64,000 nucleotides of DNA from Candidatus Eiseniibacteriota bacterium (GTDB lineage: Bacteria > Eisenbacteria > RBG-16-71-46 > JABDJR01). Location of the stretch: the NCBI GenBank assembly GCA_963762255.1, contig CAVXKA010000001.1, forward strand, positions 128,001 through 192,000. The letters run 5' to 3'. Every line of letters begins with the position of its first letter. Positions within the stretch are counted from its first letter, which is position 1. The notes beneath the pieces were generated by a model. It saw only the letters and a list, made by a program, of their open reading frames with translations. It searched no databases and was not told the DNA's origin. Positions 4,357 to 51,826 of the stretch are shown here, piece by piece. Position numbers and translations under genes: made by a program.

Positions 4357-4389
4357 CCGGCCATCAGCTTCGCTGCCTATCCCCAATCA

Positions 4390-19731: not shown

Positions 19732-19741
19732 GGACGCAAGG

Positions 19742-20053
19742 GTGTGCACTCTGCCCCAACCAGCCGCTTCGCCGCGACACGTGTGGGTCATCGCGTACGA
19801 CATCCGGGATGACAAGCGACGTGTTCGTGTGGCGAAGCATCTCTGTAGCTACGGGGAACGTGTTCAGCACAGCGTGTTCGAGAGCCGTCTGACTTCCGGG
19901 GAGGTTGCCTTGCTCCGCTCCGAACTCCGAGAGATCGTGGATCTCAAGGAGGACCAGCTTCGGTTCTACCCGCTGTGTCTGACCTGCGAGGCTCGGATCC
20001 GCCGGCAGGGCACCGCCACCACACTGGATGCGGATGGATACTCGATCATCTGA
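19742..20053 (+). CDS. cas2: Cas2
   Basis: 'VIAYDIRDDKRRVRVAK...GERVQHSVFE...DQLRFYPLC'. Confidence 0.93.
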   Translation: MCTLPQPAASPRHVWVIAYDIRDDKRRVRVAKHLCSYGERVQHSVFESRLTSGEVALLRSELREIVDLKEDQLRFYPLCLTCEARIRRQGTATTLDADGYSII

Positions 20054-20054
20054 C

Positions 20055-20331
20055 ATGTTCATCGTCGTCTCGTACGATGTCGCCGGCAGCAAGGCGCGCC
20101 GACGTGTGGCGTCCGAGTTGGAGAATTTCGGTATCAGGACCCAGTACAGCATCTTCGAGTGCCACCTGGACGATAAGCGGCTGGAGGACTTGGAAGGACG
20201 TTCTCGCTGAGCTGATTGACTGGGAGACCGATCGGGTGGCTTACTACAGTCTCTGCGCGGACGATGCCGGGCAAATCCTCACCGATGGGCCGGGCGCGGT
20301 GGCGGCGGACTCGGACTACCACATCATCTAA
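20055..20331 (+). pseudogene. cas2: Second cas2 interrupted by an apparent +1 frameshift near 20201
   Basis: 'MFIVVSYDV...RTQYSIFEC' stops at 20210; the continuation 'LAELIDWETDRVAYYSLC' is in another frame. Removing one T at 20201-20202 restores a full Cas2. Confidence 0.85.
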
Positions 20332-20343
20332 GGACGCTCGGAC

Positions 20344-21282
20344 ATGCGCCTCGCTGACAGGATCCGGCTCAACCTCGCGGACCTGGCGGTGCTTCCACGC
20401 CGGCTGGAGCTGAAGCTCGCTGAACCCTGCCCCGTTTCTGTTGCGTTGCTGCGCGGTGTCTGGGGAGCCGCGCTCCACGAATCAGCGGGAGAGGTCTATC
20501 GCGAAGTATTCGAGGGCGAAGGATCCGCGCATCTTCGGACCCCCCAGTACGTGCTCAGGCTGGCCCAGCCCCCGGGAACCTCCACGGTTACCCTTGAATG
20601 GGTGACCTTCGGATCTGCTTTGCGTTGCGGCGAGGCTCTAATTCAGGCTTGGCGGCTCGCGGGCGTCATGGGCCTGGGGTCTGAGCGCATTCCATTCCAG
20701 GTGCGTGAAGTCTTGGAATTGGGCCCGGGGGGCGCGCCGGCACCGGTGGGGACATGGCCGGAGGGTTGGCCCGTCTCACTTGACCGGAGCCCCGTGTCCG
20801 GTGTCGACGGGACGCTGCCTGTTCGCGTCGCCTTTCCGTCGGGGGTTCGCGTGATGAGGCGCCTAGCGGGAACTTCGCGCGCGGTTCTCACCGAGTCCCC
20901 TGGCCCCGCTGAGATCGCACTGGGAGCGCTCCGCAGGTTAGCCGCATGCATGCCCGAGGGCTCGGGCATCAACGATGGCCGCGGGCTGCTTGGCTTGCAC
21001 GACGATGTCCGCGACTACGCCCAGGGCGTGCCTCACCTTGGGTGGCAGGGACAGCGATCCGACTACTCCCGCTATTCCGCCCGTCAGCGCGACGAATACG
21101 AGATTCGCGCCGTGACTGGACATCTGGACCTGCCGAAGGGGAGCGGGGAAATCTGGCCGCTCATCGCCGCGGCGCAGTGGCTCCACATCGGCAAGGGTAC
21201 GACGCTCGGGCTGGGACAGCTTGTGATCCTGCCGCTTCCGGATCCGAGCACCTCGGACACAGGGGAGATCCCACAGCTATGA
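20344..21282 (+). CDS. cas6: Cas6 pre-crRNA processing endoribonuclease
   Basis: 'LLRGVWGAAL', 'RYSARQ' and C-terminal G-loop 'HIGKGTTLGLG'. Confidence 0.9.
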   Translation: MRLADRIRLNLADLAVLPRRLELKLAEPCPVSVALLRGVWGAALHESAGEVYREVFEGEGSAHLRTPQYVLRLAQPPGTSTVTLEWVTFGSALRCGEALIQAWRLAGVMGLGSERIPFQVREVLELGPGGAPAPVGTWPEGWPVSLDRSPVSGVDGTLPVRVAFPSGVRVMRRLAGTSRAVLTESPGPAEIALGALRRLAACMPEGSGINDGRGLLGLHDDVRDYAQGVPHLGWQGQRSDYSRYSARQRDEYEIRAVTGHLDLPKGSGEIWPLIAAAQWLHIGKGTTLGLGQLVILPLPDPSTSDTGEIPQL

Positions 21283-22745
21283 AGACGGCTACGCTGGACG
21301 CAGAACTTACGGCCATCGTCGAGAGATGGCGGACCGCAGACCGAAGAGAACAGGACATCATATATGCGAAAGAATTCGCTCCGGGATTCGTGCCTCTCTT
21401 CGCCCAACTTCCTCTGGCGGGAGCCCCGGAATCACTTGGGCGGCCAAAGGGCTTGGTCAGCGTACTTGGTCTATCGTGGCAGCCGGCAGCCTTGATGTCG
21501 GCATGGGCGCATCCAGAGCGGCTATTGGTCCTGGGGACCAAGGAGTCGTTCGCGGTCGAGGTCGCCGGGCGCCACGTCTTGGAGCTGATCCTTCAGTTCT
21601 CCGGTCTGTCGGCCGCAATGGTGGAGCATCGTGCGTTGGAGAGCGACGACGAGGCCGGAATCTACCGTGAAGTTCGCCAGTTCCTGGATCGCCACGGATA
21701 CCGGCCGCGCGAGGTATTCATCGACCCAACCGGTGGAAAGAAGTCGATGTCCGCCGCCGCCAGCCTCGCCGGGTACCTCAGCGGTTCCCCTCTGGTCTAC
21801 GTGGACTACGCCCAATACCAGGAACGAAATCGCATCCCGCTCGCGGGGTCGGAGTTCCCGCGACTGCTGGCGAACCCACTCGATGTCTTCGGCGACATTG
21901 AGAAGGGCCGAGTGTTCGACGCGTTCGATTCCGGTCACTTCGATGAGGCAGAGATCCGCGCCACCGAGTTGGCGGGGCACCTGTACGAACCTCGTCCTGC
22001 GGAGACGCTAGCCCGCGCGGCTGCGGGCTACGGCGCATGGGATGCGTTTCGTTTTCGCGATGCCCTGGCAACACTCAGAGAGGTGCAGGCATTGCTGTCG
22101 AAGCACGACCCCCAAGACCGATGGCACGAAGTCCAGGATATCCGGGAATTACTGCCCGCTCATCTCCAGCACCTGGAGGCGGTCTGTGCCGGCGGCGATA
22201 CGCCGGAGACTTGGCAGGCAGGACGGTGCGTTCTATTGAATCATCTTGCCGCGGCACGCCGCGCCCTGGCCTGGAAGCGGACGAGCGTCGCCGTACTCCT
22301 GCTCTACGCCACCATTGAACGGATGTTGAACCTCTACCTGCGAGCACACTTCGGGATGCGGATGGAGCAGCCGGACTTCACGGCGGTAGACGCGCTCATA
22401 GATCGCGCCGAGTATGAGAAGGCCGGAGCGCTTCTGGGGGAGTCATCTGCATGGCCTCCCCATGAGGGGCCTTTGATGTTCGCGAGTGGGTTGCGCCTTC
22501 TTGCCGGGTTGCGACCCGGCTTGCTGAGCGATAGCGACTTGAAGACGCTCCGGGATCTTGGCAATGTTCGCAATACCTGTGAGTTCGAACACGGTTTCAT
22601 GCCCCGGCCGCCTGACCGCAAACGTGTGGATGATCTCGCGAAGCGGGTTACTCGAATTCTGGAGCACGTCGACGACGCGTGGGGCGGTGAGGATGAACTG
22701 GCAAGATTGCGATTTCCGAGGCTTGTGCCCGGAGGGGCTTCGTAA
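21279..22745 (+). CDS. CARF-HEPN protein (TIGR02710-like), putative cOA-activated ribonuclease
   Basis: CARF motif 'IDPTGGKKSMS', then 'LLANPLDVFG' and C-terminal 'RNTCEFEHG' HEPN-like motif; ATGA overlap with cas6. Confidence 0.82.
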   Translation: MKTATLDAELTAIVERWRTADRREQDIIYAKEFAPGFVPLFAQLPLAGAPESLGRPKGLVSVLGLSWQPAALMSAWAHPERLLVLGTKESFAVEVAGRHVLELILQFSGLSAAMVEHRALESDDEAGIYREVRQFLDRHGYRPREVFIDPTGGKKSMSAAASLAGYLSGSPLVYVDYAQYQERNRIPLAGSEFPRLLANPLDVFGDIEKGRVFDAFDSGHFDEAEIRATELAGHLYEPRPAETLARAAAGYGAWDAFRFRDALATLREVQALLSKHDPQDRWHEVQDIRELLPAHLQHLEAVCAGGDTPETWQAGRCVLLNHLAAARRALAWKRTSVAVLLLYATIERMLNLYLRAHFGMRMEQPDFTAVDALIDRAEYEKAGALLGESSAWPPHEGPLMFASGLRLLAGLRPGLLSDSDLKTLRDLGNVRNTCEFEHGFMPRPPDRKRVDDLAKRVTRILEHVDDAWGGEDELARLRFPRLVPGGAS

Positions 22746-22918
22746 CAAGGCTTTCAGGAAAGCGCGCCTTCCTTCTGTCCGGCGTGTACCCCGGCGCGGC
22801 AGAACACCACGGGTGCGTAATCCCAGGTCTGCCGTCCGGCACACCATGACCCCACGCTAACGTCCCCACGCGGCAGCCGCGAGCCAGGATCCGAGAGAGG
22901 GGGAAGGCGTGATCAAGA

Positions 22919-23917
22919 GCCTCAATCCCCACTTCTTGGGGCGGTAATAGCAAGGACCGATCAAGTCGGGCGCTACCAGCTCGCATCTCAACCGTTCTCA
23001 ATCCCCACGTCTCGGGGCAGTAATCGCAAGGCTCGACCTCTGCATTACCGCCGAGTACTACCGAGAGTCTCAATCCCCACGGCTCGGGGCAGTAATCCCA
23101 AGTCGTCGTCACCTCAGTGGCGAAGACTTGTTTCCGGGTGTCTTAATCCCCACGTCTCGGGGCAGTTATCGCAAGTTGAAACCGGGGCACATCATCCAGG
23201 TCTCGAATGACATGTCTCAATCCCCACGTCTCGGGGCAGCTATCGCAAGCAGCGCGACGCTCGGCTTCATGGACAACACGCCGCGGGCGTCTCAATCCCC
23301 ACGCCTCGGGGCAGTAATCGCAAGGCCGCCGCGATGGTCGCCATCCAGTTCGCGGAGTCGATGTCTCAATCCCCACGTCTCCGGGCAGTAATCGCAAGTC
23401 TCCAGCGGTGACACGACCGATGGGACGCTTCGCTTGTCTCAATCCCCACGTCTCGGGGCAGTAATCGCGAGTCTGATTTCCATCGGCCTGTGCGCCTGCG
23501 CCGACAAGGTCTCAATCCCCACGTCTCGGGGCAGTAATCGCAAGTGGTTCCCCCTTCCGGGTTGGGACCGAATCCTAGCCCATCAAATGCAAGTCCCACC
23601 GGACTAAGAATCGGGGGGCATGTCAGCTTCGCCGAAGCGGCCTAATCCCACCCTGGGGATCAAGTCTCAATCCCCACGTCTCGGGGCAGTAATCGCAAGT
23701 ACATCAAGCAGAGAGTGTGTATCAAGTGGTAGGTGGTCTCAATCCCCACGTCTCGGGGCAGTAATCGCAAGCCTTTGTCACGTGGAAGACTGGGAACTCG
23801 CTCGTTAGGTCTCAATCCCCACGTCTCGGGGCAGGAATCGCAAGTCGCGCGGCCATCCGCGCCAAGATGGAGGGGGAATGAGTCTCAATCCCCACGTCTC
23901 GGGGCAGTAATCGCAAG
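22919..23917 (-). CRISPR. CRISPR array 2: about 14 repeats (CTTGCGATTACTGCCCCGAGACGTGGGGATTGAGAC on - strand)
   Basis: 36-bp repeats, more degenerate at the left end, with leader-like sequence on the right; one 119-bp spacer at 23545-23663. Confidence 0.96.
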
Positions 23918-24020
23918 TCTACCGCTGTAACCTCTTATCCTGCAAGGACTCTGGGGCTGATTTCCGCCGACTTCGACGGTGCGAGCCCCACCTCCATGGC
24001 GCACTTGAAGTGGCAAGCCA
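23918..24020 (-). promoter_or_regulatory. Leader of CRISPR array 2
   Basis: Shares 'gtaacc.ctt', 'caagg..tctg' and 'tttccgccgac' blocks with the array 1 leader at the same distance from the repeat. Confidence 0.65.
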
Positions 24021-25089: not shown

Positions 25090-26271
25090 TCAGTCGGTCC
25101 GAACTCGCTGGTAGGCTTCGCGAAACGGAATCCCCTCTTCCTGCACCAGGCGGTACGCGCATTCCGCCGCGCGCAGCGAGGGATCCATAGCTTCACTCAG
25201 GCGCGCCGCCTCGAACCGGATGCCGGGGATCGCATGCGCGAACATGTGCGCGGTCGCGCTCACCGAGTCGAAACCCCGGAATAGCGGCTTCTTGATGAGC
25301 TGGAGATCGCGATGGTAGCCCGACGGCATCTTGGCGGTGATGTCGAGCACCTCGTGGAGCGCGGCGAACGCTTCCGCGGTACGCCCGCGCGCGAGCTCGA
25401 AGAGGTCCGGGTTTCGCTTCTGCGGGAGCATGGATGACCCCGTGGTGAATTCGTGAGGCAACACGACGAATCCGAACTCCGCCGTGGCGAAGAGACAGAG
25501 ATCCGCGGCGAGCCTTCCGAAATCCTGCGCGAGCAACGCGGCTTCGAAGAGCGCGGATGCCTCCGCTTTTCCCCGCGAAAGCTGAACGGCGGTCACAGGC
25601 TCGTGCGTCTCCGCGAAACCGAGGCCGTGAGTCGTGTGTTCGCGATCGAGCGCGAGCACCGGCACGCCATAACCCGCCGCAGAGCCGAGCGGGTTCTTGT
25701 CCGCGCGCCGCCGCGCGGCGCGCAGGCCTTCGGCGTCGTCTTCGATTTCGGACGCGAATGCATCGGCCCACAGCGCGACGGTAGAAGGCATGGCGCGCTG
25801 CAGGTGCGTGTAGCCGGGCATGGCAAGATGCCCCTCGCGCGCGGCGAGATCGTGGAGCGCCGCGGTCACGGCGTCGGCTTCCTCCGCGAGTGCGTCGAGC
25901 GCGTCCTTGAGCCAGAGCCGTAGCGCCGCCAGTACCTGATCGTTGCGCGAGCGCCCGAGATGAATGCGCTGTCCCGCTTCGCCGACCGCCGCCACCAGAC
26001 GATTCTCGATTGCGGTGTGGCAATCCTCTTCTTCGAGCGAGACCCGCCACGCGCCGCGCACGTGGGATTCGGCGACGGCGGTGAGCGCAACGTCGAGCGC
26101 GGTGAAATCCTCCGCGGAGAGATAACCGCACGCGCGCAGCATCGCCGCATGAGCGCGGGACGCGCGCACATCGTAGCCGACGAGCCGGTCATCGAGCACA
26201 TGATCCTCGCCCGCGGTGTAGTTGAGCACGAACCGGTCGAGCGGCTCGCCGCGGTCCCAGAGACGGGTCAT
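25090..26271 (-). CDS. argH: Argininosuccinate lyase
   Basis: 'HLGRSRNDQV', 'MPGYTHLQRAMP', 'GSSMLPQKRNPD'. Confidence 0.95.
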   Translation of the reverse strand: MTRLWDRGEPLDRFVLNYTAGEDHVLDDRLVGYDVRASRAHAAMLRACGYLSAEDFTALDVALTAVAESHVRGAWRVSLEEEDCHTAIENRLVAAVGEAGQRIHLGRSRNDQVLAALRLWLKDALDALAEEADAVTAALHDLAAREGHLAMPGYTHLQRAMPSTVALWADAFASEIEDDAEGLRAARRRADKNPLGSAAGYGVPVLALDREHTTHGLGFAETHEPVTAVQLSRGKAEASALFEAALLAQDFGRLAADLCLFATAEFGFVVLPHEFTTGSSMLPQKRNPDLFELARGRTAEAFAALHEVLDITAKMPSGYHRDLQLIKKPLFRGFDSVSATAHMFAHAIPGIRFEAARLSEAMDPSLRAAECAYRLVQEEGIPFREAYQRVRTD

Positions 26272-27455
26272 GACGGGGCTCCTTTGCTCACCGGAGAAGC
26301 GGCATTGATCAGGGCGTCGGGCGCTGCGGCGGAAATCCGCCCGGCGCATTCGCGCACCGCGCGCTCGTAGAAGCGCGCGCCCTCCACGATCTCGCTTTCG
26401 AGAACATACTCGTCCGGCGTGTGGGAGCGCTCGGTGCGGCCCGGCCCGACCTTGATGCCGGGAATGCCGCGGAAGAACACCAGGTCGGAGAGGCCTCGCG
26501 ATCCGAAGAGCTTTGCTTGAGGGCGGGCCACGCGCGCCGCCTCCACCAACGGATGCCCGGCGTCTATCGCGCAGGGGTGAAGGCGGTCGCTCAAGACGCG
26601 CAGCTCGCCTTCAATGACAGTGCGCAACACGGCGAGCACCTCCGCCACGCCGGGCTCTGGGTTCACCCGCACGTCGAGCACGCAGCTCGCCTCGCCCGGC
26701 ACCATGTTGCGCGCCGCACCGCCCTGAATCACGGTCGGCTCCACGGTAACGGGGCCGAGATCGGGATGCGCGGGGCCCAGGTCGACCGCGCTTAACGCAA
26801 CCAGATCCCGCGCCAGCGCGTGGATCGCGCTCGTGGCGCCCAACGCGCGGCCGTGCGCTGCGTGGCAGCCTTGTCCGTGAGCGACCAGTTCCAACACGAG
26901 AAGCCCCTTTTGAGCGATGGCGATGTCGAGGCCGGTCGGCTCGCCCACGATCACCGCGTCGGGCGTGAGGCCGCGACGCGCGAGTTCGGCGACGAGAGCC
27001 TCGGCGCCCTTGCCGCCGGTTTCTTCCTCGGAGGTCAACGCGAGCAGGAGCCGCAGACCGGGAGCGGCCTCGCGCGCACCGGCTGCGCGCCCGCCGCTCA
27101 CGCGATCGCGTAGTCTCAGGAACGCGGCGATCATGGTCGCTACGGAAGCCTTGGCATCGTTGCTCCCGAGCCCGTAGACGCGCCCCTCCTCGACCGTTAC
27201 GTCGTGCGGTGCGCGCGTCCACGCCGGGGTCGGCGGCACCGTGTCGAGGTGCGAGCAGAGGCAGACGGTCGGGCCGCTGCTATGCGTCGTCATGCCGTCC
27301 CACACCGCGAAGAGGCTGTTGCCGTATCGCTCCGCTACCACCCCACGCGCGCTCAACCACTCGACGAGGTACGCGCACAGCGCATCCTCGTCGCGCGACA
27401 CCGACGGGATCGCGACGATCTTGCGATGGAGCGCGAGCAGCTCGGCGTCGGTCAC
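26268..27455 (-). CDS. argE: M20 deacetylase (acetylornithine/acetylcitrulline deacetylase)
   Basis: 'SHLDTVP', 'GLGSNDAK', 'EEETGG', 'SHTPDE'; lies in the arg operon. Confidence 0.85.
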   Translation of the reverse strand: MTDAELLALHRKIVAIPSVSRDEDALCAYLVEWLSARGVVAERYGNSLFAVWDGMTTHSSGPTVCLCSHLDTVPPTPAWTRAPHDVTVEEGRVYGLGSNDAKASVATMIAAFLRLRDRVSGGRAAGAREAAPGLRLLLALTSEEETGGKGAEALVAELARRGLTPDAVIVGEPTGLDIAIAQKGLLVLELVAHGQGCHAAHGRALGATSAIHALARDLVALSAVDLGPAHPDLGPVTVEPTVIQGGAARNMVPGEASCVLDVRVNPEPGVAEVLAVLRTVIEGELRVLSDRLHPCAIDAGHPLVEAARVARPQAKLFGSRGLSDLVFFRGIPGIKVGPGRTERSHTPDEYVLESEIVEGARFYERAVRECAGRISAAAPDALINAASPVSKGAPS

Positions 27456-28438
27456 CGCACCGCACTCCTCGCGCCCGTCGCATCGACCGGCGCGGTCGTC
27501 TCCGTCACCGCCCCCTGCTCCGACGGCGCAAGATCGGCCATGTCCCGCACGATCAACGTGCCGGATCCCTCGTTGGTGAACACCTCCAGAAGGAGACTTC
27601 CCCGCTGCTTGTGTCCCACCACATGCACGCGACGGACGCCGCCCGAAAGCGCCGAGCGCGCGGCGTCGGTCTTGGGAAGCATGCCGCCGTCGAGCGTGCC
27701 TCGCGCCTCCATCGCCGCGAGCGTCTCGAAATCCAGAATGCTCACGAGCGACATCGGCACGCTCTTGTCCTCGAGGATCCCCGGCGTGTCGGTGAGGAAG
27801 ATGAGCTTCTCGGCGGCAAGCGCCGAGGCCACCGCGGCCGCCACCGTGTCCGCGTTGATGTTGAGCACGCGTCCCGTGTCGTCGGCGGCCAACGGGCTCA
27901 TCACGGGAACGAAACCGGCGTCGAGCAGGCGGTCCAGGGCCCCGCGATCCACCGACACGATGTCCCCCACCTCACCGTAGTCGATCGCCACCGGGCCGTG
28001 TCCGAGGTCCTTCATGACCGGCGGACGAATCCGCGCGCGCACGATCCCCGCGTCCACCCCGGACACCCCCACCGCGGCAATGTGCGCCGCGCGGCAGGCT
28101 GCGAGGATCGCGGTGTTGACGGTGCCGTTCAAGGTCATCACCGCGGCCTGCAAGGTTGCCGGATCGGTGACGCGCCGCCCGTCGACCTTGCGCGTCTCGA
28201 TGCCCAACCGTTCGGCCAGGGCCGTGATTTGCGGACCGCCGCCGTGAACGAGCGCCACCCGGATGCCGAACTCGGTCAAGACCGAGACCTGCTCGGCGAT
28301 CCGCGCGAGCGCGGCGGCATCCGTGCAGGTCGAACCCCCGAGCTTGATCACGAACGTCTTACCCTTGTAGAGGCGCACGTACGGAAGCGCGCCGGTCAGC
28401 GCGGCAAGCGTGGCCTCGCGATCGTGAGCGCCCGTCAT
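27452..28438 (-). CDS. argB: Acetylglutamate kinase
   Basis: 'VIKLGGS', 'VHGGGPQI', 'NINADTVA', 'GGMLPK'. Confidence 0.95.
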   Translation of the reverse strand: MTGAHDREATLAALTGALPYVRLYKGKTFVIKLGGSTCTDAAALARIAEQVSVLTEFGIRVALVHGGGPQITALAERLGIETRKVDGRRVTDPATLQAAVMTLNGTVNTAILAACRAAHIAAVGVSGVDAGIVRARIRPPVMKDLGHGPVAIDYGEVGDIVSVDRGALDRLLDAGFVPVMSPLAADDTGRVLNINADTVAAAVASALAAEKLIFLTDTPGILEDKSVPMSLVSILDFETLAAMEARGTLDGGMLPKTDAARSALSGGVRRVHVVGHKQRGSLLLEVFTNEGSGTLIVRDMADLAPSEQGAVTETTAPVDATGARSAVR

Positions 28439-29484
28439 CGTCCCGCCTCCGCAAGCGCGCTCTTGAAGACCCGCACGCCTACCGGACCCGAGAGCATCTC
28501 CTCGAGCAACGCCTTCTGTCCGTGAAGCCGGTTGCCGGCCTGGCGCACGACGACGCTGCGCGGGCCGTCGAGCACCTCGTCGGAGACCTTGACGTTGCGT
28601 CGCACGGGAAGGCAGTGCATGAACTTCGCGTTCGGCCGCGCGGAGGCGAACCACGACTCGCTTACGCACCAATCGCGGAGAGTTGCGCGCATCGGTGCCT
28701 CATCCGCGGGACGCCCGTAGTGCTCGCGAGCCGCCCACGACTTTGCATAGATCACATGCGCGCCGTCCATGGCGGCGGCGCGATCGGAGGTCTCGGCGAT
28801 CGAGCCTCCCGAACGCGCGGCCAACCCACGCGCCTTGGCCATGATCGGCTCGGGCAGCGCATAGCCCTCGGGGCGCAGCACCGTCACCTGCATACCGCGC
28901 CGCGCCGCCATGGCCAGGGCCGAAGCGGGCACCGCGTAAGGCAGCGGCTTCGGGTGGTACGCCCACGAGAGAACGAACTTCCCCCCTGAGCGCGGAATAT
29001 CGAGATCCTCGAGCGTCTTCCAGTCGGCCAGCGCCTGACACGGATGCGAGACCGCAGATTCGAGGTTGATGAACGGCACCGGCGAGAGATCGGCCATGAG
29101 CTTGATGAGGCCGTCGGCGAGATCCTCCTCCAGGTCCTTCCCCTTGGCGAAGCAGCGCACGCCGAGCGCGCTTGCATACTCGGCCAGCACCGGGATCGCC
29201 TCGCGCACGTGCTCCACCGCGTCTCCGTCCATGACCGTGCCGTCGCGCGTCTCCAACGTCCACGATCCCTGGCCGGGGATGATGGTGAAGCTCGTGCCGC
29301 CTAGCTGCGCGATCCCCGCTTCCATCGAAGCCAGCGTTCGCAGCGACGGGTTCATGAAGAGAAGCCCGACCGTGTTGCCGCGAAGGGAGTGGTTGTAGGG
29401 GGCGTGTTCCAGCTCGCGCGCGCGTCGCAGCACCGCTTCGAGGCGGTCGTCGGAAAGGTCGTCGAGTTCGAGAAAACGGTTCAT
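28435..29484 (-). CDS. argF: N-acetylornithine carbamoyltransferase (ArgF')
   Basis: 'FMNPSLRT', 'HPCQALAD', 'WAYHPKPLP', 'HCLPVRRN'; these are AOTCase-type signatures. Confidence 0.9.
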   Translation of the reverse strand: MNRFLELDDLSDDRLEAVLRRARELEHAPYNHSLRGNTVGLLFMNPSLRTLASMEAGIAQLGGTSFTIIPGQGSWTLETRDGTVMDGDAVEHVREAIPVLAEYASALGVRCFAKGKDLEEDLADGLIKLMADLSPVPFINLESAVSHPCQALADWKTLEDLDIPRSGGKFVLSWAYHPKPLPYAVPASALAMAARRGMQVTVLRPEGYALPEPIMAKARGLAARSGGSIAETSDRAAAMDGAHVIYAKSWAAREHYGRPADEAPMRATLRDWCVSESWFASARPNAKFMHCLPVRRNVKVSDEVLDGPRSVVVRQAGNRLHGQKALLEEMLSGPVGVRVFKSALAEAGR

Positions 29485-29531: not shown

Positions 29532-30698
29532 TCAGGCTTCGATGTCTCGAAGCGCGGCGACGAGAAGGTCTACGTGTTGGTCTTCGAGCACGAGCGGCGG
29601 AAGCAGGCGCACGACATGCGGGTCCGCGCTTCCCCCGGCGAGGATCCCATGGTCGAGAAGCGCCGCGAGCACCGTCCTGGCCGGTGGTAGCGTGCGGAGC
29701 CCGAGAAGGAAACCCATGCCTTGCACGTCGGTGACCGCCCCGATCACGCACTCCTCGCGGAGCCGGGCCGAGAGCCGCCGCACGTTCGCAAGCAACCCGT
29801 CCTCTTCGATCGCGTCGATGACCGCGGTCACCATGGCCATCGCAAGCGGGCCGCCGCCGAAGGTCGTGCCGAGCGCTCCGCGCGGCACGCTCGAGGCGAG
29901 TTCCTCGCCGAGGAGCACCGCGCCCACCGGGAACCCGCCGCCCAACCCCTTGGCGGTGGTGAGAAGGTCGGGTGTGATCCCGTGCGCCTGTGCCGCGAAC
30001 GGGTGTCCTGTGCGCCCCATGCCGCACTGCACCTCGTCGAAGATGAGTAGAGCCCCGGAAGCGCGCGTGACGGCGCGGGCGTGCTCCAGAAACGCAAGCG
30101 ACAATGCCCGCGCGCCGGCCACACCCTGCACCGGCTCCACGATCACCGCGGCTACATCGGAACCCATTGCGCGCTCGAGCGCGTCCGCGTCGTCGAACGG
30201 AACGAAGGTGACCGGAAACGGCGTCTGCGGAAACCCATACCAGCCCGCGCTTCCCGTGGTGAGCGCCGCGGCCGCGGCCGTGCGGCCGTGAAAGGCGCCC
30301 TCCACAGCGACCACGCGAGTTCGGCGCGTGGCCAGGAATGCGATGCGCAACGCGTTTTCGTTGGCTTCCGCCCCCGAGTTCACGAAGAAGGCGCGGGTGA
30401 ATCCCGCCGGACCGAATCCCACCAACCGCGCCGCCGCGCGCTCGCGCACCGCCAACGGCACCGCGTTGCTCTGGAAGAAGAGCGTTCTCGCCTGTTCGTG
30501 GAGCGCATGCACCAGTCGGGGATGCCCATAGCCGAGGAGCGCCACCGCGTGGCCACCGTAGAAGTCGAGCACGCGCGTGCCGTCTTCTGTGACGAGGAAG
30601 ACGCCCTCGCCGCGCGCCGCGCGGAGATCGACAGGCGCATAGACATCGAGCAAGGCGGTTGCGGGCGCGGTCGCGTTGGAGAAACGGGTGGCGGCCAC
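29532..30698 (-). CDS. argD: Acetylornithine aminotransferase
   Basis: 'NSGAEANE', 'FHGRT', 'DEVQCGMGRTG', 'AKGLGGGFP'. Confidence 0.9.
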   Translation of the reverse strand: MAATRFSNATAPATALLDVYAPVDLRAARGEGVFLVTEDGTRVLDFYGGHAVALLGYGHPRLVHALHEQARTLFFQSNAVPLAVRERAAARLVGFGPAGFTRAFFVNSGAEANENALRIAFLATRRTRVVAVEGAFHGRTAAAAALTTGSAGWYGFPQTPFPVTFVPFDDADALERAMGSDVAAVIVEPVQGVAGARALSLAFLEHARAVTRASGALLIFDEVQCGMGRTGHPFAAQAHGITPDLLTTAKGLGGGFPVGAVLLGEELASSVPRGALGTTFGGGPLAMAMVTAVIDAIEEDGLLANVRRLSARLREECVIGAVTDVQGMGFLLGLRTLPPARTVLAALLDHGILAGGSADPHVVRLLPPLVLEDQHVDLLVAALRDIEA

Positions 30699-30700
30699 GA

Positions 30701-31876
30701 TCAGAACACCCCCAGGCCCGGAAGCCGGAGGCCGGTGTCGTCGGAGAGATCGAAGAGACGGTTCATCCACTGCACGGCGCCGCCGGCAGCGCCTTTGACC
30801 AGATTGTCGATGACGGAGGTCACGACCAGCGTCCGACCGCGCGTCGCTATGCCGAGGCGGCAGCGATTGGTGCCCACGACCTCGGTGAGCCTGGGCGGGG
30901 TTTCCGTGGCATGCACGAAGGGAGCGCCCGCATAGAACACGTTGAGAATCGCGACCGCCTCCGCGGCGGGCATCGGCTGCTTCAACGTGAGCCGCAGCGT
31001 GGCGTGAATGCCGCGCACGAAGGGCCCCGAGTGCGGCACGAACTCCACCTCGGGCTCGCGCCCGCCGCGGGCCGCACTCAAGAGCATACGCATCTCCGCT
31101 TCATGGCGGTGCACGAGCGGCGCGTACGCGTACATTGCACTTCGCCGCTCCGGATGATGCGTGTTGGCGGTGGGCGCGCGGCCACTCCCCGAGCTTCCCG
31201 TCACCGCCGAGACGAACACGTCGTCCTCGACGAGGCCCGCGGCGAAGAACGGATAGGCGGCGAGCACCGCCGCGGTGGTGAAGCAGCCGGGCTGCGTCGC
31301 ATGCAACGGCGCGGGTCCGGCATGATGCTCCGGCACCGCGCAGGTGAAGGAGGCGGCGCGGTGCGGCGCACGGTGCTCCCGGCCGTAGATCGCCTCGTAC
31401 CGACCGGTGTCGGTGAAGCGGAAATCGGCCGAGAGGTCCACCGCGCGCGGCATCACGCCGCGCTCCTCGAACGCACCAAGAAGCGAGTCGAGCAGCGCCG
31501 CGGTCTCGCCGTGAGGCGTGGCCGCGAATACAGCAATAGGTGCGCCGGGCAGGACCTGATTCAGAGGCTCGGCCGCCCGAGCCGATGACTCGGCGCCGTC
31601 AGCCTGCGCGCTCGACGCAAGCGCATCTACCCCGGAGAAGCGCAACCCCTCGGGAAGCGTCCCCGCCAGGTGCGGGAACGCGTCCGCCACGAACGTGCCG
31701 GCGTGGGTACTCGACGTCACCGCCGCCACGCGAAAGACCGGATGCCCGGCCAGGAGCCGCAGCAATTCACCGGCCACGTACCCCGTGCCGCCGAGCACGA
31801 TCGCAGGCACGGTGGCCCGCGCGGACAGCGACGTCTCCGGCGGCAAGAACGCTGACGCGACCGCGCGGTTAGACAT
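30701..31876 (-). CDS. argC: N-acetyl-gamma-glutamyl-phosphate reductase
   Basis: 'GGTGYVAGEL', 'DLSADFR', 'PGCFTT', 'DNLVKGAAG'. Confidence 0.95.
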   Translation of the reverse strand: MSNRAVASAFLPPETSLSARATVPAIVLGGTGYVAGELLRLLAGHPVFRVAAVTSSTHAGTFVADAFPHLAGTLPEGLRFSGVDALASSAQADGAESSARAAEPLNQVLPGAPIAVFAATPHGETAALLDSLLGAFEERGVMPRAVDLSADFRFTDTGRYEAIYGREHRAPHRAASFTCAVPEHHAGPAPLHATQPGCFTTAAVLAAYPFFAAGLVEDDVFVSAVTGSSGSGRAPTANTHHPERRSAMYAYAPLVHRHEAEMRMLLSAARGGREPEVEFVPHSGPFVRGIHATLRLTLKQPMPAAEAVAILNVFYAGAPFVHATETPPRLTEVVGTNRCRLGIATRGRTLVVTSVIDNLVKGAAGGAVQWMNRLFDLSDDTGLRLPGLGVF

Positions 31877-32942
31877 CGGTATCTCCCACGATGACAGGCA
31901 TCGCCATGCTCCGCAGCACGAGATCGGCGAGCGCCGGGCCGTTCGAGCGCGCGTTCACCGCGCTCACGCTCGTCTCGCGCTCCACGAGCCGCGTTCCCGC
32001 GACGTTGTCGGTGGCGGGACCGGTGACCGCAGTGGTCGCGATCCCGTGCCGCTCTCGCAGGAGTCGCGCGCCTCCCCACGCACCGACCGGATCGTTGGCG
32101 GCGAGCACGACCGCGCTGAAACTCGCGCGCAGCGCCTCGTCGTCGAGAATGGCGTCCACCCCGTAGAGCCCTACCAGCCCGTCTCCCATCTCGAGCACGA
32201 TCACGTCCGGCGCGTCCGTGGCAAGCTGCGTGACGATGGTGCGCGCGATGCGCGGAGCACTCTCGGCGGTGGTGGTCACGACCCCGAGATCGGTGAAGAT
32301 GAGCGTGCGAGACGCGCCCGCGTCCTCCATGGCCAGGATGTCGCGACGCAACGAGACGCCTGTGGTCTTGCCGGCGGCCACCTTGAGCCCCTGATGCGCG
32401 AACGCCTCGATCAGCGCGCACGCGGCCGCCGTCTTGCCCGAGTTCATGCAGGTGCCCACGATCGCGACGACCGGCACGCCCGCGGTCACGATCGCATCGG
32501 ACAGCGGCAGCGCACCCTGTGCGATGTGTGCGGGATGGCCGACGCGCTCCCCGAGAATCGGAAAGTGCAGCACCTGACCCAGCACCTCGCCCACGAAGGG
32601 CTCGCCGAAATCGGGGTTCACGCCGTCGCAGAGACCGATGACGCCGCCCATGTTCAAGATATGCAGGCGATCGCCTACTTCCACCCGCGACGGCACCACG
32701 CCCGAGTATCCGAAGAGCGCCTTGCGATGGCCGAGCGCACCCGCCACCACGTTTCCCGGGCGGATCTTGGAGAAGCGCCCGGAGGGAAGTTCGATCTGGT
32801 CGTACGTCGTCTTGGTCGAGAGCACGCGTACGGCGATGACGCCGCCTTCCACGGCGGGGATGTCCGCACCGAGGCGCACCTCACGCGAGAGCCGGCAGTT
32901 GAGCGTGACCGATCCGATCTTGTCGAGGAGGACCTTCTTCAT
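31869..32942 (-). CDS. DUF1611/DgcN-like P-loop protein embedded in the arg operon
   Basis: 'VVAIVGTCMNSGKT', 'AAGKTTG', 'DVIVLEMGDGL'; overlaps both argG and argC. Confidence 0.7.
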   Translation of the reverse strand: MKKVLLDKIGSVTLNCRLSREVRLGADIPAVEGGVIAVRVLSTKTTYDQIELPSGRFSKIRPGNVVAGALGHRKALFGYSGVVPSRVEVGDRLHILNMGGVIGLCDGVNPDFGEPFVGEVLGQVLHFPILGERVGHPAHIAQGALPLSDAIVTAGVPVVAIVGTCMNSGKTAAACALIEAFAHQGLKVAAGKTTGVSLRRDILAMEDAGASRTLIFTDLGVVTTTAESAPRIARTIVTQLATDAPDVIVLEMGDGLVGLYGVDAILDDEALRASFSAVVLAANDPVGAWGGARLLRERHGIATTAVTGPATDNVAGTRLVERETSVSAVNARSNGPALADLVLRSMAMPVIVGDTDV

Positions 32943-34207
32943 CGCGCGCCCTCACTCGCGACGACCGCGATCGCCGGCGACGGCGCCGCCGCGCCGGACT
33001 TTGCCCCCGCGCGCTCGTGCAGCATTCCCGGCAGCGCGAGCATGCGCGAGAAGCCCCGCGCATCGGCCGCCGTCCACTCGCCGGCGGCCTCGCCGTAGAC
33101 CGCGCGCGACGCCGCGCGCAGCGAGTGCGGCGAAGAGACCCCCTCCACGAACGCGAAGCCCGGCCGGAACAGCATCGTGACCTCGCCGGTCACCCGCTCC
33201 TGCGAGCGCACGAAGAGCGCCTCGATGTCACGGCACGCCGGCTCCAGGAACTGTCCCTCGTGCACGAGATCGCCGTAGATGACCGCGAGACCGTCCTTCA
33301 CCCGCTGCTGGCGCGCGGTCAGCGTGAGCTTCTCCAGCTCGCGATGCGCGGCGATGAGGGTGACCGCGGCCGGCGCCTCGAAGGCCACGCGACCCTTGAG
33401 ACCGAAGATCGTGTCGCCGAGATGGATGCCGCGGCCGATGCCGAACGCGCCCGCCATCGCGTTCAAGCGTTCGATGAGATCGACCGGCGCCATCGTCACG
33501 CCGTCCACCGCGACAGGAAGACCGAGCTCGAAGCGCACCGAGTGGCGCTCGGGCTCGCGAGGACGGTCGAACGCGCCCGCGGTCAGCACCCACGCGGACT
33601 CGGGGAGCGGCTCCACCGTGTCCGTCGTCTCCTTGCCGCCGATCGTCACGCCCCAGAGGCCGGCGTTCACGGAGTACGCCGCGCGCTCCGACGGCCACGC
33701 GATGCTCCGCTCGACCAGCCACGCCACCTCGTCCGCGCGCGAGAAGCCTTCGTCGCGAATGGGGGCGAGGATCTCGAGCGAGGGATCGAGCGTGCGCAGG
33801 GCGACCTCGAACCGCACTTGATCGTTGCCGGCGGCGGTGCAGCCATGGGCCACGGCATGCGCGCCCAGCTCGCGAGCCGTCTCGGCCACCACGCGAGCCT
33901 GCAGGCTGCGCTCCGCGCCCACGCAGAGCGGGTAGAGATGACCGCGCAGCACGTTTCCCATGATGAGAAAGGAGAGCGTCTCGTTGAAGAAGTCCTCGCG
34001 TGCGTCCACCAGGATGTGGCGCGACGCACCAAGTTCGCGCGCGCGCAGGCGCAACCGCTCACGGGCCGCGTCGTCGAGCCCGCCCGTGTCCACGGTGACC
34101 GTCACGATCTCCGCGTTGTGCCGCTCGCCCAGCCACGGCACGCAGAAGGAGGTATCGAGCCCCCCGCTGAACGCGAGAACGATGGGACCGTCCTTCAACT
34201 CACTCAC
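32939..34207 (-). CDS. argG: Argininosuccinate synthase
   Basis: 'LAFSGGLDTS', 'HGCTAAGNDQVRFE', 'KGRVAFEAPA'. Confidence 0.95.
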   Translation of the reverse strand: MSELKDGPIVLAFSGGLDTSFCVPWLGERHNAEIVTVTVDTGGLDDAARERLRLRARELGASRHILVDAREDFFNETLSFLIMGNVLRGHLYPLCVGAERSLQARVVAETARELGAHAVAHGCTAAGNDQVRFEVALRTLDPSLEILAPIRDEGFSRADEVAWLVERSIAWPSERAAYSVNAGLWGVTIGGKETTDTVEPLPESAWVLTAGAFDRPREPERHSVRFELGLPVAVDGVTMAPVDLIERLNAMAGAFGIGRGIHLGDTIFGLKGRVAFEAPAAVTLIAAHRELEKLTLTARQQRVKDGLAVIYGDLVHEGQFLEPACRDIEALFVRSQERVTGEVTMLFRPGFAFVEGVSSPHSLRAASRAVYGEAAGEWTAADARGFSRMLALPGMLHERAGAKSGAAAPSPAIAVVASEGAR

Positions 34208-34673
34208 TCTTCGACTCCTTCGCCAGCGCGGCGATCCGCGCGTGCACACGCAACTGATGAGCTCGGCCGGTCGTGGCGATGAAGAGCGTGTCGTCGCCCG
34301 CCACCGTGCCCGCCACCTCCGGCCAGCCCGCGCCGTCGACGGCCAGCGCCACCGACGAAGCCATCCCCGTCGTGGTCCTCACCACCAACAGATGCGGCCC
34401 GGCAGCGGTGACCTTTGCAATGAACAGCGCGACCTCGGCCAGCCGCGTCGCCGGGCGATCCCCGGCCGAGAGCGTCTTCGCCAGCACGTAGCGCCCTCCC
34501 ACCTTGGCCACCCCCATCTCTTGAAGATCGCGGGAGACGCTCGGTTGGGTGACCCGGAAACCGAGCTTCTTGAGCCGCTGAAGGAGCTCCGTCTGGTTCC
34601 GCACGGCTTCCTTGTCGACGATCTTCTCGATCGCCGCCCAGCGCTCCTGCCACTCCTCGTTGCGATGCGACAT
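34200..34673 (-). CDS. argR: Arginine repressor
   Basis: 'VTQPSVSRDL', 'GTVAGDDT'. Confidence 0.95.
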   Translation of the reverse strand: MSHRNEEWQERWAAIEKIVDKEAVRNQTELLQRLKKLGFRVTQPSVSRDLQEMGVAKVGGRYVLAKTLSAGDRPATRLAEVALFIAKVTAAGPHLLVVRTTTGMASSVALAVDGAGWPEVAGTVAGDDTLFIATTGRAHQLRVHARIAALAKESKSE

Positions 34674-34754
34674 CCCGACCTCCGCTCGTAACTTGTTAAT
34701 CCGCAATGAGTTTCGACTTGTCTCGGCAAGCCCGCGCCCGCGCCCGAAAAGAAC

Positions 34755-34794
34755 ATGCGCAAGATACTATTTGTATGCGCATGAAAATGCAACA
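34755..34794. promoter_or_regulatory. Putative tandem ARG boxes upstream of argR
   Basis: AT-rich imperfect palindrome gcgcatgaaaatgcaa (34777-34792), with a weaker copy 'atgcgcaagatact' about 20 bp to the left. Confidence 0.6.
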
Positions 34795-43283: not shown

Positions 43284-44212
43284 ATCCGACCGAACCTGAC
43301 TCGCTGACACGGGGGACGGGGCACAAGGCGCGCGCGATCTGCGAAGTACGCGATCTCACCAAGCGCTTCGGCAGCGTCACCGCGCTGGAGCGCGTCACCC
43401 TCGACATCCCCGCTGGATCGGTGGTGGGGCTCATCGGGCGCAACGGGAGCGGGAAGACCACGCTGCTTCGCAACTTGATCGGGCTCCAGCTTCCCACCTC
43501 GGGGAGCTGCACCACGCTGGGCCGCGCCTGCGACAAGCTCGGCGCGGATGAGCTCGCGCGCATCGGGGTCGTGCACCAGGAGAACCGGTTCGTCGAGTGG
43601 ATGTCGGTGGAGCAGCACCTCGCCTATGTGGGTTCCTTCTACCCGCTCTGGGACAAGGAGCGTGAGGCGCGGCTCCTGCGCGAATTGGAGCTCGACCGCA
43701 AGGCGCAGGTGGGAAACCTCTCCCCCGGCAACGCTCAGAAGCTCGGGATCCTCCTGGCCGTGTGCCATCACCCGGAGCTTCTCTTCCTGGATGAGCCGGT
43801 GAGCGCGCTCGATCCGATCGCCCGCGAGATGATGCTCAAGTTTCTCTTCGAGCTGCTGGAGGATTCCGGGCGCACGATCGTCATCTCCTCGCACGTGTTG
43901 CGCGACGTGGAGAAGATCGTGGATCACGTGATCTGTCTCGATCGCGGACGGGTGCGCCACGCCGCGCCGTTGGATGAACTGCAGGAGCGGTTCTGCGAGT
44001 GGCTGGTCATCTCGAAGAGCGGGAAGCTCCCCGTGTACTTCTCCGAACGCTACGTCCTATCCCACGAGGGAACGAGCTTCGAGGCCCGACTCTTCGTGCG
44101 CGACGCCAACGGCGCCCTCCCCGAGTTCTGCGCGGCCTACGACGCCGAGGTCACGCCGCGCCCGCTCAACCTCGAACGGCTCTTCCCGCTTCTCCTGGAG
44201 GAGAAGGTCTGA
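43280..44212 (+). CDS. ABC transporter ATP-binding protein
   Basis: 'GRNGSGKTT', 'LSPG', 'FLDEP', 'SSH'. Confidence 0.93.
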   Translation: MNPTEPDSLTRGTGHKARAICEVRDLTKRFGSVTALERVTLDIPAGSVVGLIGRNGSGKTTLLRNLIGLQLPTSGSCTTLGRACDKLGADELARIGVVHQENRFVEWMSVEQHLAYVGSFYPLWDKEREARLLRELELDRKAQVGNLSPGNAQKLGILLAVCHHPELLFLDEPVSALDPIAREMMLKFLFELLEDSGRTIVISSHVLRDVEKIVDHVICLDRGRVRHAAPLDELQERFCEWLVISKSGKLPVYFSERYVLSHEGTSFEARLFVRDANGALPEFCAAYDAEVTPRPLNLERLFPLLLEEKV

Positions 44213-45732
44213 TGCGCGCGCGGGCGCTGGGGCGGATACTGGCCCGGCCGGCCATGCTCTTCTGGTTCTTCACGCTCGTTTCCAGCGTCCTGCTGCTGGT
44301 GGAGCTGGCGGGAGTGGTGCGCGGCGTGCCGTTCCCGATGGACGCTTTGCTCTCGGTGGGGCGATCCCCCGCCTCCGAGGACGCGGTCCATCTCCTCCAC
44401 TTCACGCTGATCGTCATGACCGCCATGCTGGGGTTCCTGGTGGGACAGGCCGCGAGAGAAGTGCAACACGCTTACTTCGCCTGGGCGGTGCCCGGGCTGC
44501 GCCGCGATCTGGGTCACGGGGTCGCGGCGGTCGGGGCCCTGTGCGCGATCGGGGTCGCCGCCGGCTACGCGCCTCTCGACGGGCCGCTGTCGCCGCCGGT
44601 CGCCGGCGCTCTGGCTCTGACCGCGTTTGCGCTCGGCTCCGCCATCGAGGGGCTCACGTTGTTCATGGCGTTTCGTCCGCGCGCGCTCCTGCCCGCACTC
44701 GCCCTGGGCGCGCTCGCGTTCGGGATCGATGGACCCGCGCGATGGGCCGCCGCCTGGCCCGTACCGTTCGTCGTTGCCGCGGTCGCCTTCGCCGCCCTCA
44801 TCCTCTATCGCGTGAATGCCGACGACGCGGTCAGGGCGCGGATCTTCACTCCGACCTACTCTCTCCTCAATTCGTTCTCCGCCGGCGCCAAGCGCTGCTT
44901 CGCCCAGGAGATGGCCTCGGCGCGCGCCGGTCGGGGCGGGGCTTGGCGCTCAGAGCCGCTGCGGGACGACACCGCGGCGTGGGTGCGCGCGGCGGCGTAC
45001 GAACGATACGGCACGAGATCGTGGCGGTATCTCGCCGATGCGGCGGCGCTGGCCGCGGTCTCGGTGGGTATGGTGGCGGTCTTCAGTTTCCAGGAGGGAC
45101 TGGCCGGCCGCGGTTCGCGGGATGACGGGTGGTTGTTCGTGGTCCGGTCGATCTTCGCGACGCGCGGAGCGGGACATGCCGGCATGCCCCCGCTCTGCTG
45201 GCTCACCGCCTGGGTCATCGCCGCGTTCGCCTGGGGCCGCTCCGCGAGCTGGCTCCTCTTTCCTCGCTGGGGGCGGTTCTATCCGATCTCCAGGGCCTCG
45301 CTGGCTCGCGTGGCGTTCTGGTCGAGCCTTCAGCAGAACGCGGGGCACTGCGTGGTCACCGGCCTCGTCTTCGCCGCCGGCGGATTGGCTGCCGCCGCGC
45401 TCTCGGGGGAATCCATCTCACTCGACGGAATCCCGGTCTTCCTGCGTGCCCTGGGTCTCGTGTTCGCGCTGCTGCCGCTCCAGCAGTGGTTGCGCCTGCG
45501 CCACGCCCGCCGGGCCGAGATGGGACGCGGGAGCAGCTTTGCGTTCCTCACCGTCGCGCTCTCGTTCGCGTTCTGCACCGTGGTGACGCTGTGGACGATC
45601 GGCTACCCCCATGCGCTCCGCGGGCTGCCCCCGCTTGCGGAGGCTGCGATTCTCGTTTTCCTGGCCCTCGGTCTCCAGCTCTTCTACCAAGGCCGGCTGC
45701 GCGCGCACTTCGCGCGCGCTGACCTGGCGTAG
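44212..45732 (+). CDS. Multi-pass membrane protein, putative ABC permease
   Basis: Many hydrophobic segments; TGATG overlap with the ATPase gene. Confidence 0.75.
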   Translation: MRARALGRILARPAMLFWFFTLVSSVLLLVELAGVVRGVPFPMDALLSVGRSPASEDAVHLLHFTLIVMTAMLGFLVGQAAREVQHAYFAWAVPGLRRDLGHGVAAVGALCAIGVAAGYAPLDGPLSPPVAGALALTAFALGSAIEGLTLFMAFRPRALLPALALGALAFGIDGPARWAAAWPVPFVVAAVAFAALILYRVNADDAVRARIFTPTYSLLNSFSAGAKRCFAQEMASARAGRGGAWRSEPLRDDTAAWVRAAAYERYGTRSWRYLADAAALAAVSVGMVAVFSFQEGLAGRGSRDDGWLFVVRSIFATRGAGHAGMPPLCWLTAWVIAAFAWGRSASWLLFPRWGRFYPISRASLARVAFWSSLQQNAGHCVVTGLVFAAGGLAAAALSGESISLDGIPVFLRALGLVFALLPLQQWLRLRHARRAEMGRGSSFAFLTVALSFAFCTVVTLWTIGYPHALRGLPPLAEAAILVFLALGLQLFYQGRLRAHFARADLA

Positions 45733-45746
45733 TCCGGAGGATCCTC

Positions 45747-47919: not shown

Positions 47920-47968
47920 CGGTTCTGGCATACTCTCCGGTTCGGTTCTCATTCCGGGAGGTGTCAGG

Positions 47969-51732: not shown

Positions 51733-51826
51733 GAACTCTCCTTCTGAGGTTGGTCGACCTTCGCTCTATCTTCGGTTCTTCTTGAGGGTTACTTGAGCGG
51801 GGGGGGCGGCCGGACTGGGGTTCGGT

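Follow-up and report, generated by a model that had tools for sequence, protein, structure and literature searches.

A P-loop protein of an arginine operon in Candidatus Eiseniibacteriota is a predicted N-succinyl-L-glutamate synthase

How is arginine biosynthesis started in an operon that carries the later arg genes and neither argA nor argJ? The question is raised by a stretch of 64,000 nucleotides from a Candidatus Eiseniibacteriota genome (contig CAVXKA010000001.1, positions 128,001 to 192,000; the window), whose minus strand encodes, according to Pfam and NCBIfam scans, argR-argG-X-argC-argD-argF'-argB-M20 deacylase-argH. Gene X (31869-32942, minus strand) specifies a 357-residue protein of two domains. 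The original prediction, made from the letters of the window, had proposed that X is a DUF1611/DgcN-like gene lodged in the missing argA/argJ slot and a candidate new N-acetylglutamate synthase. We assign a probability of roughly 0.7 to X being the missing first enzyme of the operon, which forms N-acylglutamate. X would N-acylate L-glutamate, most likely to N-succinyl-L-glutamate, and its product would be converted to arginine by ArgB, ArgC, ArgD, a succinyl-type ArgF', the M20 deacylase, ArgG and ArgH. This assignment of X as a predicted N-succinyl-L-glutamate synthase draws on Pfam searches, an AlphaFold2 model, hhalign comparisons and operon context, from which we infer both the reaction and the acyl donor.

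X is tightly embedded in the operon. Its start overlaps the stop of argG (argininosuccinate synthase, 32939-34249, minus strand; TIGR00032, 303 bits for a cut-off of 268) by the 4 nucleotides ATGA, with a GAGGG Shine-Dalgarno-like stretch upstream of the X ATG, and the ATG of argC (30701-31876, minus strand; TIGR01850, 266 bits, above cut-off) sits 8 nucleotides inside the 3' end of X. X would be translationally coupled to both argG and argC. The argB gene, encoding the N-acylglutamate kinase (27452-28672, minus strand; TIGR00761, 218 bits), has in Pfam and NCBIfam scans an amino-acid kinase domain only, at residues 105-352 of a 406-residue open reading frame (ORF), and no GNAT domain. X itself has neither a GNAT nor an ArgJ catalytic domain in the same two libraries.

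The rest of the genome (4.14 Mb in 3 contigs, 93.63% complete) was searched for a conventional enzyme. There was no match to ArgJ (PF01960), and nothing scored above cut-off with the ArgA model TIGR01890, which matched only ArgB and a RimI-like GNAT protein at 23 bits. Seventeen GNAT matches were found in 14 ORFs, none of them within the window; 13 of these ORFs gave no match to N-acetylglutamate synthase models at E<=1e-6, and the 14th is the RimI-like protein, whose 23 bits fall on the GNAT part of ArgA. A search with PF04768 found no match, but the control for this model also found nothing, so this search is uninformative.

The distribution of X was compared with that of ArgJ and ArgA across a phylum sample of 125 genomes with a completeness of 90% or more; the rows listed all belong to the class of the window's genome or are closer to it. 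A close X orthologue was defined by E<=1e-100 and an ArgC match by E<=1e-30. ArgC was found in 62 of the 125 genomes, a close X orthologue in 8 and ArgJ in 46, of which 43 are ArgC-positive. The 62 ArgC-positive genomes comprise 8 with X only, 43 with ArgJ only, none with both and 11 with neither; the 63 ArgC-less genomes contain no close X orthologue, and ArgA was above cut-off in 0/125. In 50 further X-bearing genomes from other groups, of unreported completeness, ArgJ was found in 0/50 and ArgA above cut-off in 0/50. Altogether, ArgJ or ArgA accompanies a close X orthologue in 0/58 genomes (8 from the phylum sample and 50 others): X is mutually exclusive with ArgJ and ArgA.

Two side observations were made in this sample. 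Three of the 11 genomes with neither X nor ArgJ were inspected (L099-L101), and their distant operon reads argR-argC-argB-argD-argG, followed by argH and/or an argF-like gene, with no X. Absence of ArgC at E<=1e-30 (63/125 genomes) extends to whole families (0/11 in f6, 0/26 in f16) and includes G031, a 100% complete genome from the same family as the window's genome. This suggests that, in this class, arginine auxotrophy is widespread or the pathway has diverged very far.

To compare the gene neighbourhoods of X, relatives were collected with one genome per species and 27 closer sequences as seed, which gave 591 relatives; the best 80 loci were compared, and their arg genes were located by tblastn with the window's own proteins. 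These loci carry the titles Acidobacteriota/Thermoanaerobaculia, Myxococcota, Planctomycetota and Gammaproteobacteria (Steroidobacteraceae, Woeseiaceae). argC lies downstream of X in 78/80 loci, the other 2 ending about 270 bp or less from X, and argG lies upstream of X in 69/80. All arg matches in the related loci are on the strand of X, and the order found in the window is the commonest one. X therefore belongs to a large, unnamed and strongly conserved family that is nearly always found within arg operons. At this point much of the original prediction stands: the ArgR-headed operon devoid of argA and argJ, and the overlap of its P-loop gene with both argG and argC. The checks that it proposed on homologues also came out in its favour: linkage to arg operons (78/80 and 69/80) and, for close orthologues, anti-correlation with argA/argJ (0/8 in the phylum sample, 0/50 in other phyla). 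The proposal that X occupies the slot of the first enzyme is borne out by its operon position and by the 0/58 co-occurrence.

The related loci also bear on the last acyl-dependent step. In the window, an M20 ArgE/DapE-family deacylase gene (26268-27455, minus strand; PF01546 and PF07687) adjoins argB; no NCBIfam equivalog is above cut-off for this protein (best PRK07522, 142 bits vs 412), which is a candidate N-acylcitrulline deacylase on the basis of its domains. Among the loci that reach argH, an M20 deacylase is present beside argB in 37/51 and is lacking from the cluster in 14/51. Thirteen of the latter are titled as gammaproteobacteria or proteobacteria (Steroidobacteraceae, Woeseiaceae, unclassified), and the remaining one bears the title 'delta proteobacterium'; in all of them (L016, L046, L063, L068, L071, L073, L075, L080, L088-L092 and L094), no M20 gene lies between argB and argH.

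Such clusters raise the alternative that X is an ArgJ-like transacylase, which would transfer the acyl group of N-acylcitrulline or N-acylornithine to glutamate and so replace both synthase and deacylase. The 14/51 clusters devoid of M20, the exclusion between X and ArgJ, and the reported lack of ArgE in Steroidobacter denitrificans (bioRxiv 10.1101/2024.10.14.618325) are compatible with this. However, the M20 deacylase is present beside argB in the window and in 37/51 loci, a recycling enzyme still requires a source of de novo acylglutamate, and DapE-type desuccinylases encoded elsewhere in the genome may cover the missing step; deacylation by such an enzyme is a possibility in the M20-less carriers. 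We know of no precedent for transacylation by a protein of the P-loop fold. We consider a transacylase the least probable of the roles discussed here.

Which acyl group does the pathway use? The original prediction had named N-acetyl-L-glutamate as the product. The argF' gene (28435-29484, minus strand) encodes an N-acylornithine carbamoyltransferase that scores 393.6 bits with NF003384 (cut-off 288), and in the alignment with the Xanthomonas N-acetylornithine enzyme its Val90 (codon 29215-29217) takes the place of Glu92. Its best PDB match is 3l06; the printed Xanthomonas sequences have at this site E in 3kzc, V in 3l06, A in 3l02 and S in 3l05. In the 57 related loci that cover the site, the residue is Ala in 48, Ser in 5, Val in 4 and Glu in none. 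Replacement of Glu92 by A, P, S or V shifts the enzyme to N-succinylornithine, as stated in a preprint that cites Shi et al. 2007 (GapMind 2026, bioRxiv 10.1101/2024.10.14.618325); the same text reports that 70 ArgF' proteins adjoining homologues are likewise non-Glu at position 92, and are hence of the succinyl type. As ArgF' has Val at the Glu92 position and 0/57 related proteins have Glu, the pathway of this operon probably runs on succinylated intermediates, and the product of X would be N-succinyl-L-glutamate.

The acetyl version, in which X is an N-acetyl-L-glutamate synthase and all intermediates are acetylated, can point to the name of NF003384 (N-acetylornithine carbamoyltransferase), to the acetyl-type enzyme of Xanthomonas and its mutants as the closest solved relatives of ArgF', and to DgcN, which transfers acetyl. 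These points are outweighed by the succinyl-type signature of ArgF': Val and not Glu at position 92, a best PDB match (3l06) that itself carries V, no Glu among 57 related proteins, and the preprint's own conclusion in favour of succinyl from 70 ArgF' sequences. We consider the acetyl version very unlikely, and the product named in the original prediction is replaced here by its succinyl counterpart.

The function proposed here has been predicted before. According to the accessible part of the GapMind 2026 preprint (bioRxiv 10.1101/2024.10.14.618325), which reports no experiment on it there, the Steroidobacter protein ACG33_RS14135 is a predicted N-succinylglutamate synthase. The grounds that it gives are as follows. 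This hypothetical protein is encoded in an arg cluster, and its homologues are nearly all in arg operons and never with ArgA. It has a weak Foldseek similarity to DgcN (7XRJ), and the adjoining ArgF' has A, P, S or V at position 92. X matches were found in 61/61 sampled genomes of the family of a Steroidobacteraceae-titled genome: 60 at E<=1e-114 with 53-58% identity and one, a fragment, at 1.5e-75. The Steroidobacteraceae-titled loci have the same arg context as X. S. denitrificans was not found by name among the best 120 matches to a Steroidobacteraceae X orthologue. Literature searches by synthase name and accession returned no paper on this protein besides the preprint; a search with DUF1611 gave only unrelated papers, and one with DgcN only ecological papers. 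X is probably one more protein of a family for which a function has been predicted in print, and the synthase can no longer be called new, since the preprint makes the same prediction for what is probably the same family.

X is a real gene, because 7533 of 8000 scored candidates are homologues at E<=0.001. The best 120 have 65-96% identity, bear no label other than 'hypothetical protein' and come from Acidobacteria, Myxococcota/Deltaproteobacteria and Planctomycetota. A 50%-identity library contains 1416 representatives of the family at E<=0.001 and 171 at E<=1e-30. In the window's genome X is present in a single copy. Longer 'fused' forms were also encountered, namely 13 proteins and one 626-residue X/amino-acid-kinase protein, with ArgG, ArgC, ArgD or ArgB domains. 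As Rosetta-stone evidence they were dismissed as assembly or gene-calling artefacts, because each of the 13 was seen once, on one contig, and mirrors the neighbouring genes.

No Pfam or NCBIfam family matches X above threshold; matches below threshold (MobB at 22.4 bits, CbiA and DUF1611_C) cover the P-loop only. An AlphaFold2 model computed from the single sequence was unusable (predicted local distance difference test score, pLDDT, 37.9) and was replaced by a model computed from a 79-sequence alignment (pLDDT 96.6, predicted template-modelling score 0.93). In this model, an all-beta domain makes up the N-terminal part (residues 1 to about 147) and an alpha/beta P-loop domain the C-terminal part (approximately residues 150-347). 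Foldseek against the PDB placed the P-loop domain among SIMIBI nucleoside triphosphatases (NTPases), namely signal recognition particle (SRP) GTPases, dethiobiotin synthetase and HypB, with E from 2e-7 to 1e-5; DUF1611 entries were not among the Foldseek rows shown and surfaced with VIA-align only. In the VIA-align comparison with 48161 representative chains, the DUF1611 proteins 2g0t (Z 17.0) and 2obn (Z 16.9) ranked first and second, the dethiobiotin synthetases 3of5 and 1a82 had Z 16.6 and 16.4, CTP synthase had Z 16.0, DgcN (7xrj) was sixth with Z 16.0, and formyltetrahydrofolate synthetase was lower. These top scores differ by no more than about 1 Z unit, and essentially the C-terminal domain alone was aligned (178-194 residues). 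PDB sequence searches with X and with its 79-sequence profile returned no DUF1611/DgcN entry; what they matched was confined to the P-loop segments of FtsY, dethiobiotin synthetase and MobB. In the ESM Atlas, residues 1-150 of X and a homologue matched unnamed clusters only, with a minority of MobB, DUF1611 and CbiA labels.

The description of X as DUF1611/DgcN-like was correct for the fold of the C-terminal domain (2g0t Z 17.0, 7xrj Z 16.0) and incorrect for family membership. X does not reach the gathering score of PF07755 (DUF1611_C; 17.4 vs 25 bits, residues 156-193 only), and Pfam gives no match to the DUF1611_N domain, up to E 10. In genome searches with the DUF1611 model, X scored 18.1 bits vs 206-257 bits for true members in the same phylum. 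Fourteen bona fide DUF1611 proteins of this phylum were aligned, the first of them having matches to 2obn (E 4e-71) and to DgcN 7xrj (E 3e-62), and this alignment was compared with the X family by hhalign: the match (E 1.9e-4, probability 47.6%, 176 columns) is limited to residues 147-342 of X. The motifs differ as well. The DUF1611 proteins have G(S/T)DCxVGKM and ATGQTG, with the M of GKM in 14/14 and the Gln of ATGQTG in 14/14, and the printed sequences of 2obn and 7xrj also have GKM; X has GTCMNSGKT and AAGKTTG, and the invariant Gln of DUF1611 aligns with Lys192 of X. X is a remote relative of the DUF1611_C/BioD P-loop domain and, by these sequence comparisons, not a DUF1611 member.

X and true DUF1611 genes occur together in six genomes of the phylum sample; the genome of the window lacks a true DUF1611 gene. 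In one genome (G032), a bona fide DUF1611 gene (206 bits, C1:81068-81661) lies about 4.5 kb from the X gene (C1:75584-76621). This proximity of DUF1611 to the arg genes looks coincidental, because in G033 and G034 the DUF1611 gene is far off or on another contig.

The P-loop announced in the original prediction, GTCMNSGKT, is present at residues 163-171 of X (32430-32456, minus strand), and its key residues are kept in 79 diverse homologues (G169 in 78/79, K170 in 78/79, T171 in 77/79). Further fixed residues are Lys192 (codon 32367-32369, minus strand; 79/79), E251 (78/79) and D284 (79/79). A hidden Markov model alignment pairs Lys192 with the catalytic-site Lys (CKP motif) of the Mycobacterium tuberculosis dethiobiotin synthetase 3fgn. 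X thus has the features of the BioD type: a GxxxxxGK[ST] P-loop, a second catalytic Lys and the BioD fold (Z 16.6, 16.4). In BioD-type enzymes, ATP phosphorylates an oxygen before the nitrogen attacks.

Two chemistries for the synthase are therefore to be weighed, and they share the probability given above for X as the first enzyme. By analogy with the acetyltransferase DgcN, which reportedly uses acetyl-coenzyme A (acetyl-CoA), the donor for X would be succinyl-CoA; this is our tentative preference, by a narrow margin. On the other hand, GKT, of the Mg-binding type, and Lys192 are kept in X and not in DUF1611, which has GKM and Gln instead, and therefore an ATP-dependent, BioD-type succinate:L-glutamate ligase is a serious, if doubtful, alternative. 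Such a ligase would form succinyl phosphate, which the amine of glutamate would attack; no CoA would be needed, and the succinate freed by the deacylase would be reused. The canonical set of nucleotide-binding residues kept in the family, the match of K192 to the CKP Lys of 3fgn, and the scores of the dethiobiotin synthetases, level with those of DUF1611 and accompanied by a place among the top Foldseek matches, all argue for the ligase. However, P-loop residues conserved in this way may just as well hold the phosphate groups of CoA, and DgcN, the only characterised acylator of the glutamate amine in this structural neighbourhood, is named an N-acetyltransferase in its PDB title and in the preprint (bioRxiv 10.1101/2024.10.14.618325).

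The fold is also compatible with a role that is not enzymatic. X might be a SIMIBI-type accessory NTPase, acting as a metallochaperone of the M20 deacylase or as an assembly or regulatory factor of ArgB/ArgC. Its P-loop domain resembles HypB (Z 15.3) and UreG (Z 14.2), as well as MeaB/MMAA and the SRP GTPases, and has the weak Pfam matches to MobB and CbiA; in addition, paralogues 29-34% identical to X stand beside ABC exporters, so that the fold serves other contexts. However, X is present in M20-less clusters, including 8 loci (6 with long flanks) in which only X, argC and argB were found, and an accessory role leaves the exclusion with ArgJ/ArgA unexplained and the first step without an enzyme. 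We therefore consider it unlikely, if less so than an acetyl synthase or a transacylase.

The 29-34% identical tier is a paralogous subfamily with another role. Its members have the same two-domain span as X and are found in 11 genomes of the phylum sample, 9/11 of which have ArgJ. They adjoin ATP-binding cassette (ABC) exporters (ABC_membrane and ABC_tran) and CarboxypepD_reg proteins, not arg genes, at 9210-10385 of L095 (G059), 9618-10838 of L097 (G084) and 9110-10252 of L098 (G047), the G047 copy lying near a PGA_cap gene.

Several observations weigh against X as the first enzyme. Eleven ArgC-positive genomes (one of which, G048, is flagged unpublished) have neither X nor ArgJ nor ArgA; there are therefore synthases that are unknown or of a small GNAT type, and a gap in the pathway is not by itself diagnostic. 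The window's genome may likewise encode a small GNAT synthase. The homology of X to DgcN is weak (47.6% in hhalign, with DUF1611 fold scores tied with those of dethiobiotin synthetase), and the N-terminal domain of X has no family or fold match in Pfam (up to E 10) or the ESM Atlas. Finally, the synthase role is itself called a prediction in the preprint (bioRxiv 10.1101/2024.10.14.618325). With these points taken into account, a first enzyme that makes N-acylglutamate remains our preferred reading of X.

Is the synthase gene controlled by arginine? The first gene of the operon, argR (34200-34706, minus strand), encodes an arginine repressor (PF01316 and PF02863; TIGR01529, E 7e-29); from the start region, its true start is likely the ATG at 34673, which has GGAGG just upstream. 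Upstream of argR, an AT-rich island includes a putative ArgR operator (34755-34782, minus strand), which consists of a pair of palindromic ATGCGCAT-like sites spaced by 20 bp. Pairs of such sites, with at most 1 mismatch each and 19-21 bp apart, were found upstream of argR in 24/66 related loci from four bacterial groups vs 0/3896 control bins elsewhere in those loci. The 4.14-Mb genome contains 4 such pairs; the other 3 are in G+C-rich stretches, two of them within called ORFs. The Steroidobacteraceae loci have a TGCA(T/A)NTTTATGCA variant instead. The site pair is the probable ArgR operator for operons of this type, and X, downstream of it, would therefore be under arginine control, probably through ArgR.

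The remaining genes of the operon are argD, for N-acylornithine aminotransferase (29532-30770, minus strand; PF00202, E 3e-90), and argH, for argininosuccinate lyase (25090-26349, minus strand; TIGR00838, 307 bits, above cut-off). The 5' ends of the argB and argH ORFs are probably overcalled, and that of argG may be. A simple scan of the operon for promoters and terminators found nothing beyond shuffled expectation. Elsewhere in the window, G+C is 0.61-0.63 at 4001-24000 vs 0.67-0.70 in the remainder, and the AT skew is strongly negative (-0.148) at 44001-52000.

If the proposed role is correct, several large and mostly uncultured bacterial groups enter arginine synthesis, at its first committed step, with a P-loop protein that is related to none of the characterised N-acetylglutamate synthases. 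A recurrent gap in metabolic reconstruction would be closed, as such genomes may otherwise score as arginine auxotrophs. The family has thousands of members, all labelled 'hypothetical'. Were X a ligase, its enzyme class would be new for the opening step of a core amino-acid pathway, it would form a second mechanistic branch beside DgcN, and arginine synthesis would start without a CoA thioester in these Acidobacteriota, Myxococcota, Planctomycetota and Steroidobacteraceae/Woeseiaceae.

How does X compare with known systems? With ArgA (kinase-like plus GNAT), ArgJ and the short GNAT synthases it shares the proposed role, the operon slot and an exclusive distribution, but it has no kinship to them in sequence or fold. 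With DgcN and other DUF1611 proteins (7XRJ, 2OBN, 2G0T) it shares an architecture of about 350 residues in two domains with a BioD-like C-terminal P-loop domain (root-mean-square deviation 2.8-3.0 A over 181-187 aligned residues), and DgcN acylates the amino group of glutamate, as is proposed for X. The N-terminal domains, however, fail to align in hhalign, that of X being all-beta; DUF1611_N, going by its Pfam name, we take to be Rossmann-like. The motifs are GKM and Gln in DUF1611 vs GKT and K192 in X, and DgcN acts on D-glutamate with acetyl, whereas L-glutamate and succinyl are proposed for X. Dethiobiotin synthetase (BioD), the N-terminal domain of CTP synthase and CobB/CobQ resemble X in the GxxxxxGKT motif, the CKP-aligned Lys and an acidic residue after a Walker-B-like strand (Foldseek E about 1e-6). 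They differ in that they match the C-terminal domain only, at 15-17% identity, X having an extra beta domain of 147 residues; for X, ATP dependence is hypothetical.

The closest parallel is ACG33_RS14135. Both proteins are encoded in an arg cluster with argB, argC, argD, argF', argG, argH and argR and no classical ArgA, both have a weak similarity to DgcN, and both go with a non-Glu ArgF'. All these features were found independently for X, and the likeness is one of context, not of direct sequence comparison. The two clusters differ in the deacylase: the window keeps its M20 gene, whereas S. denitrificans is reported in the preprint to lack ArgE.

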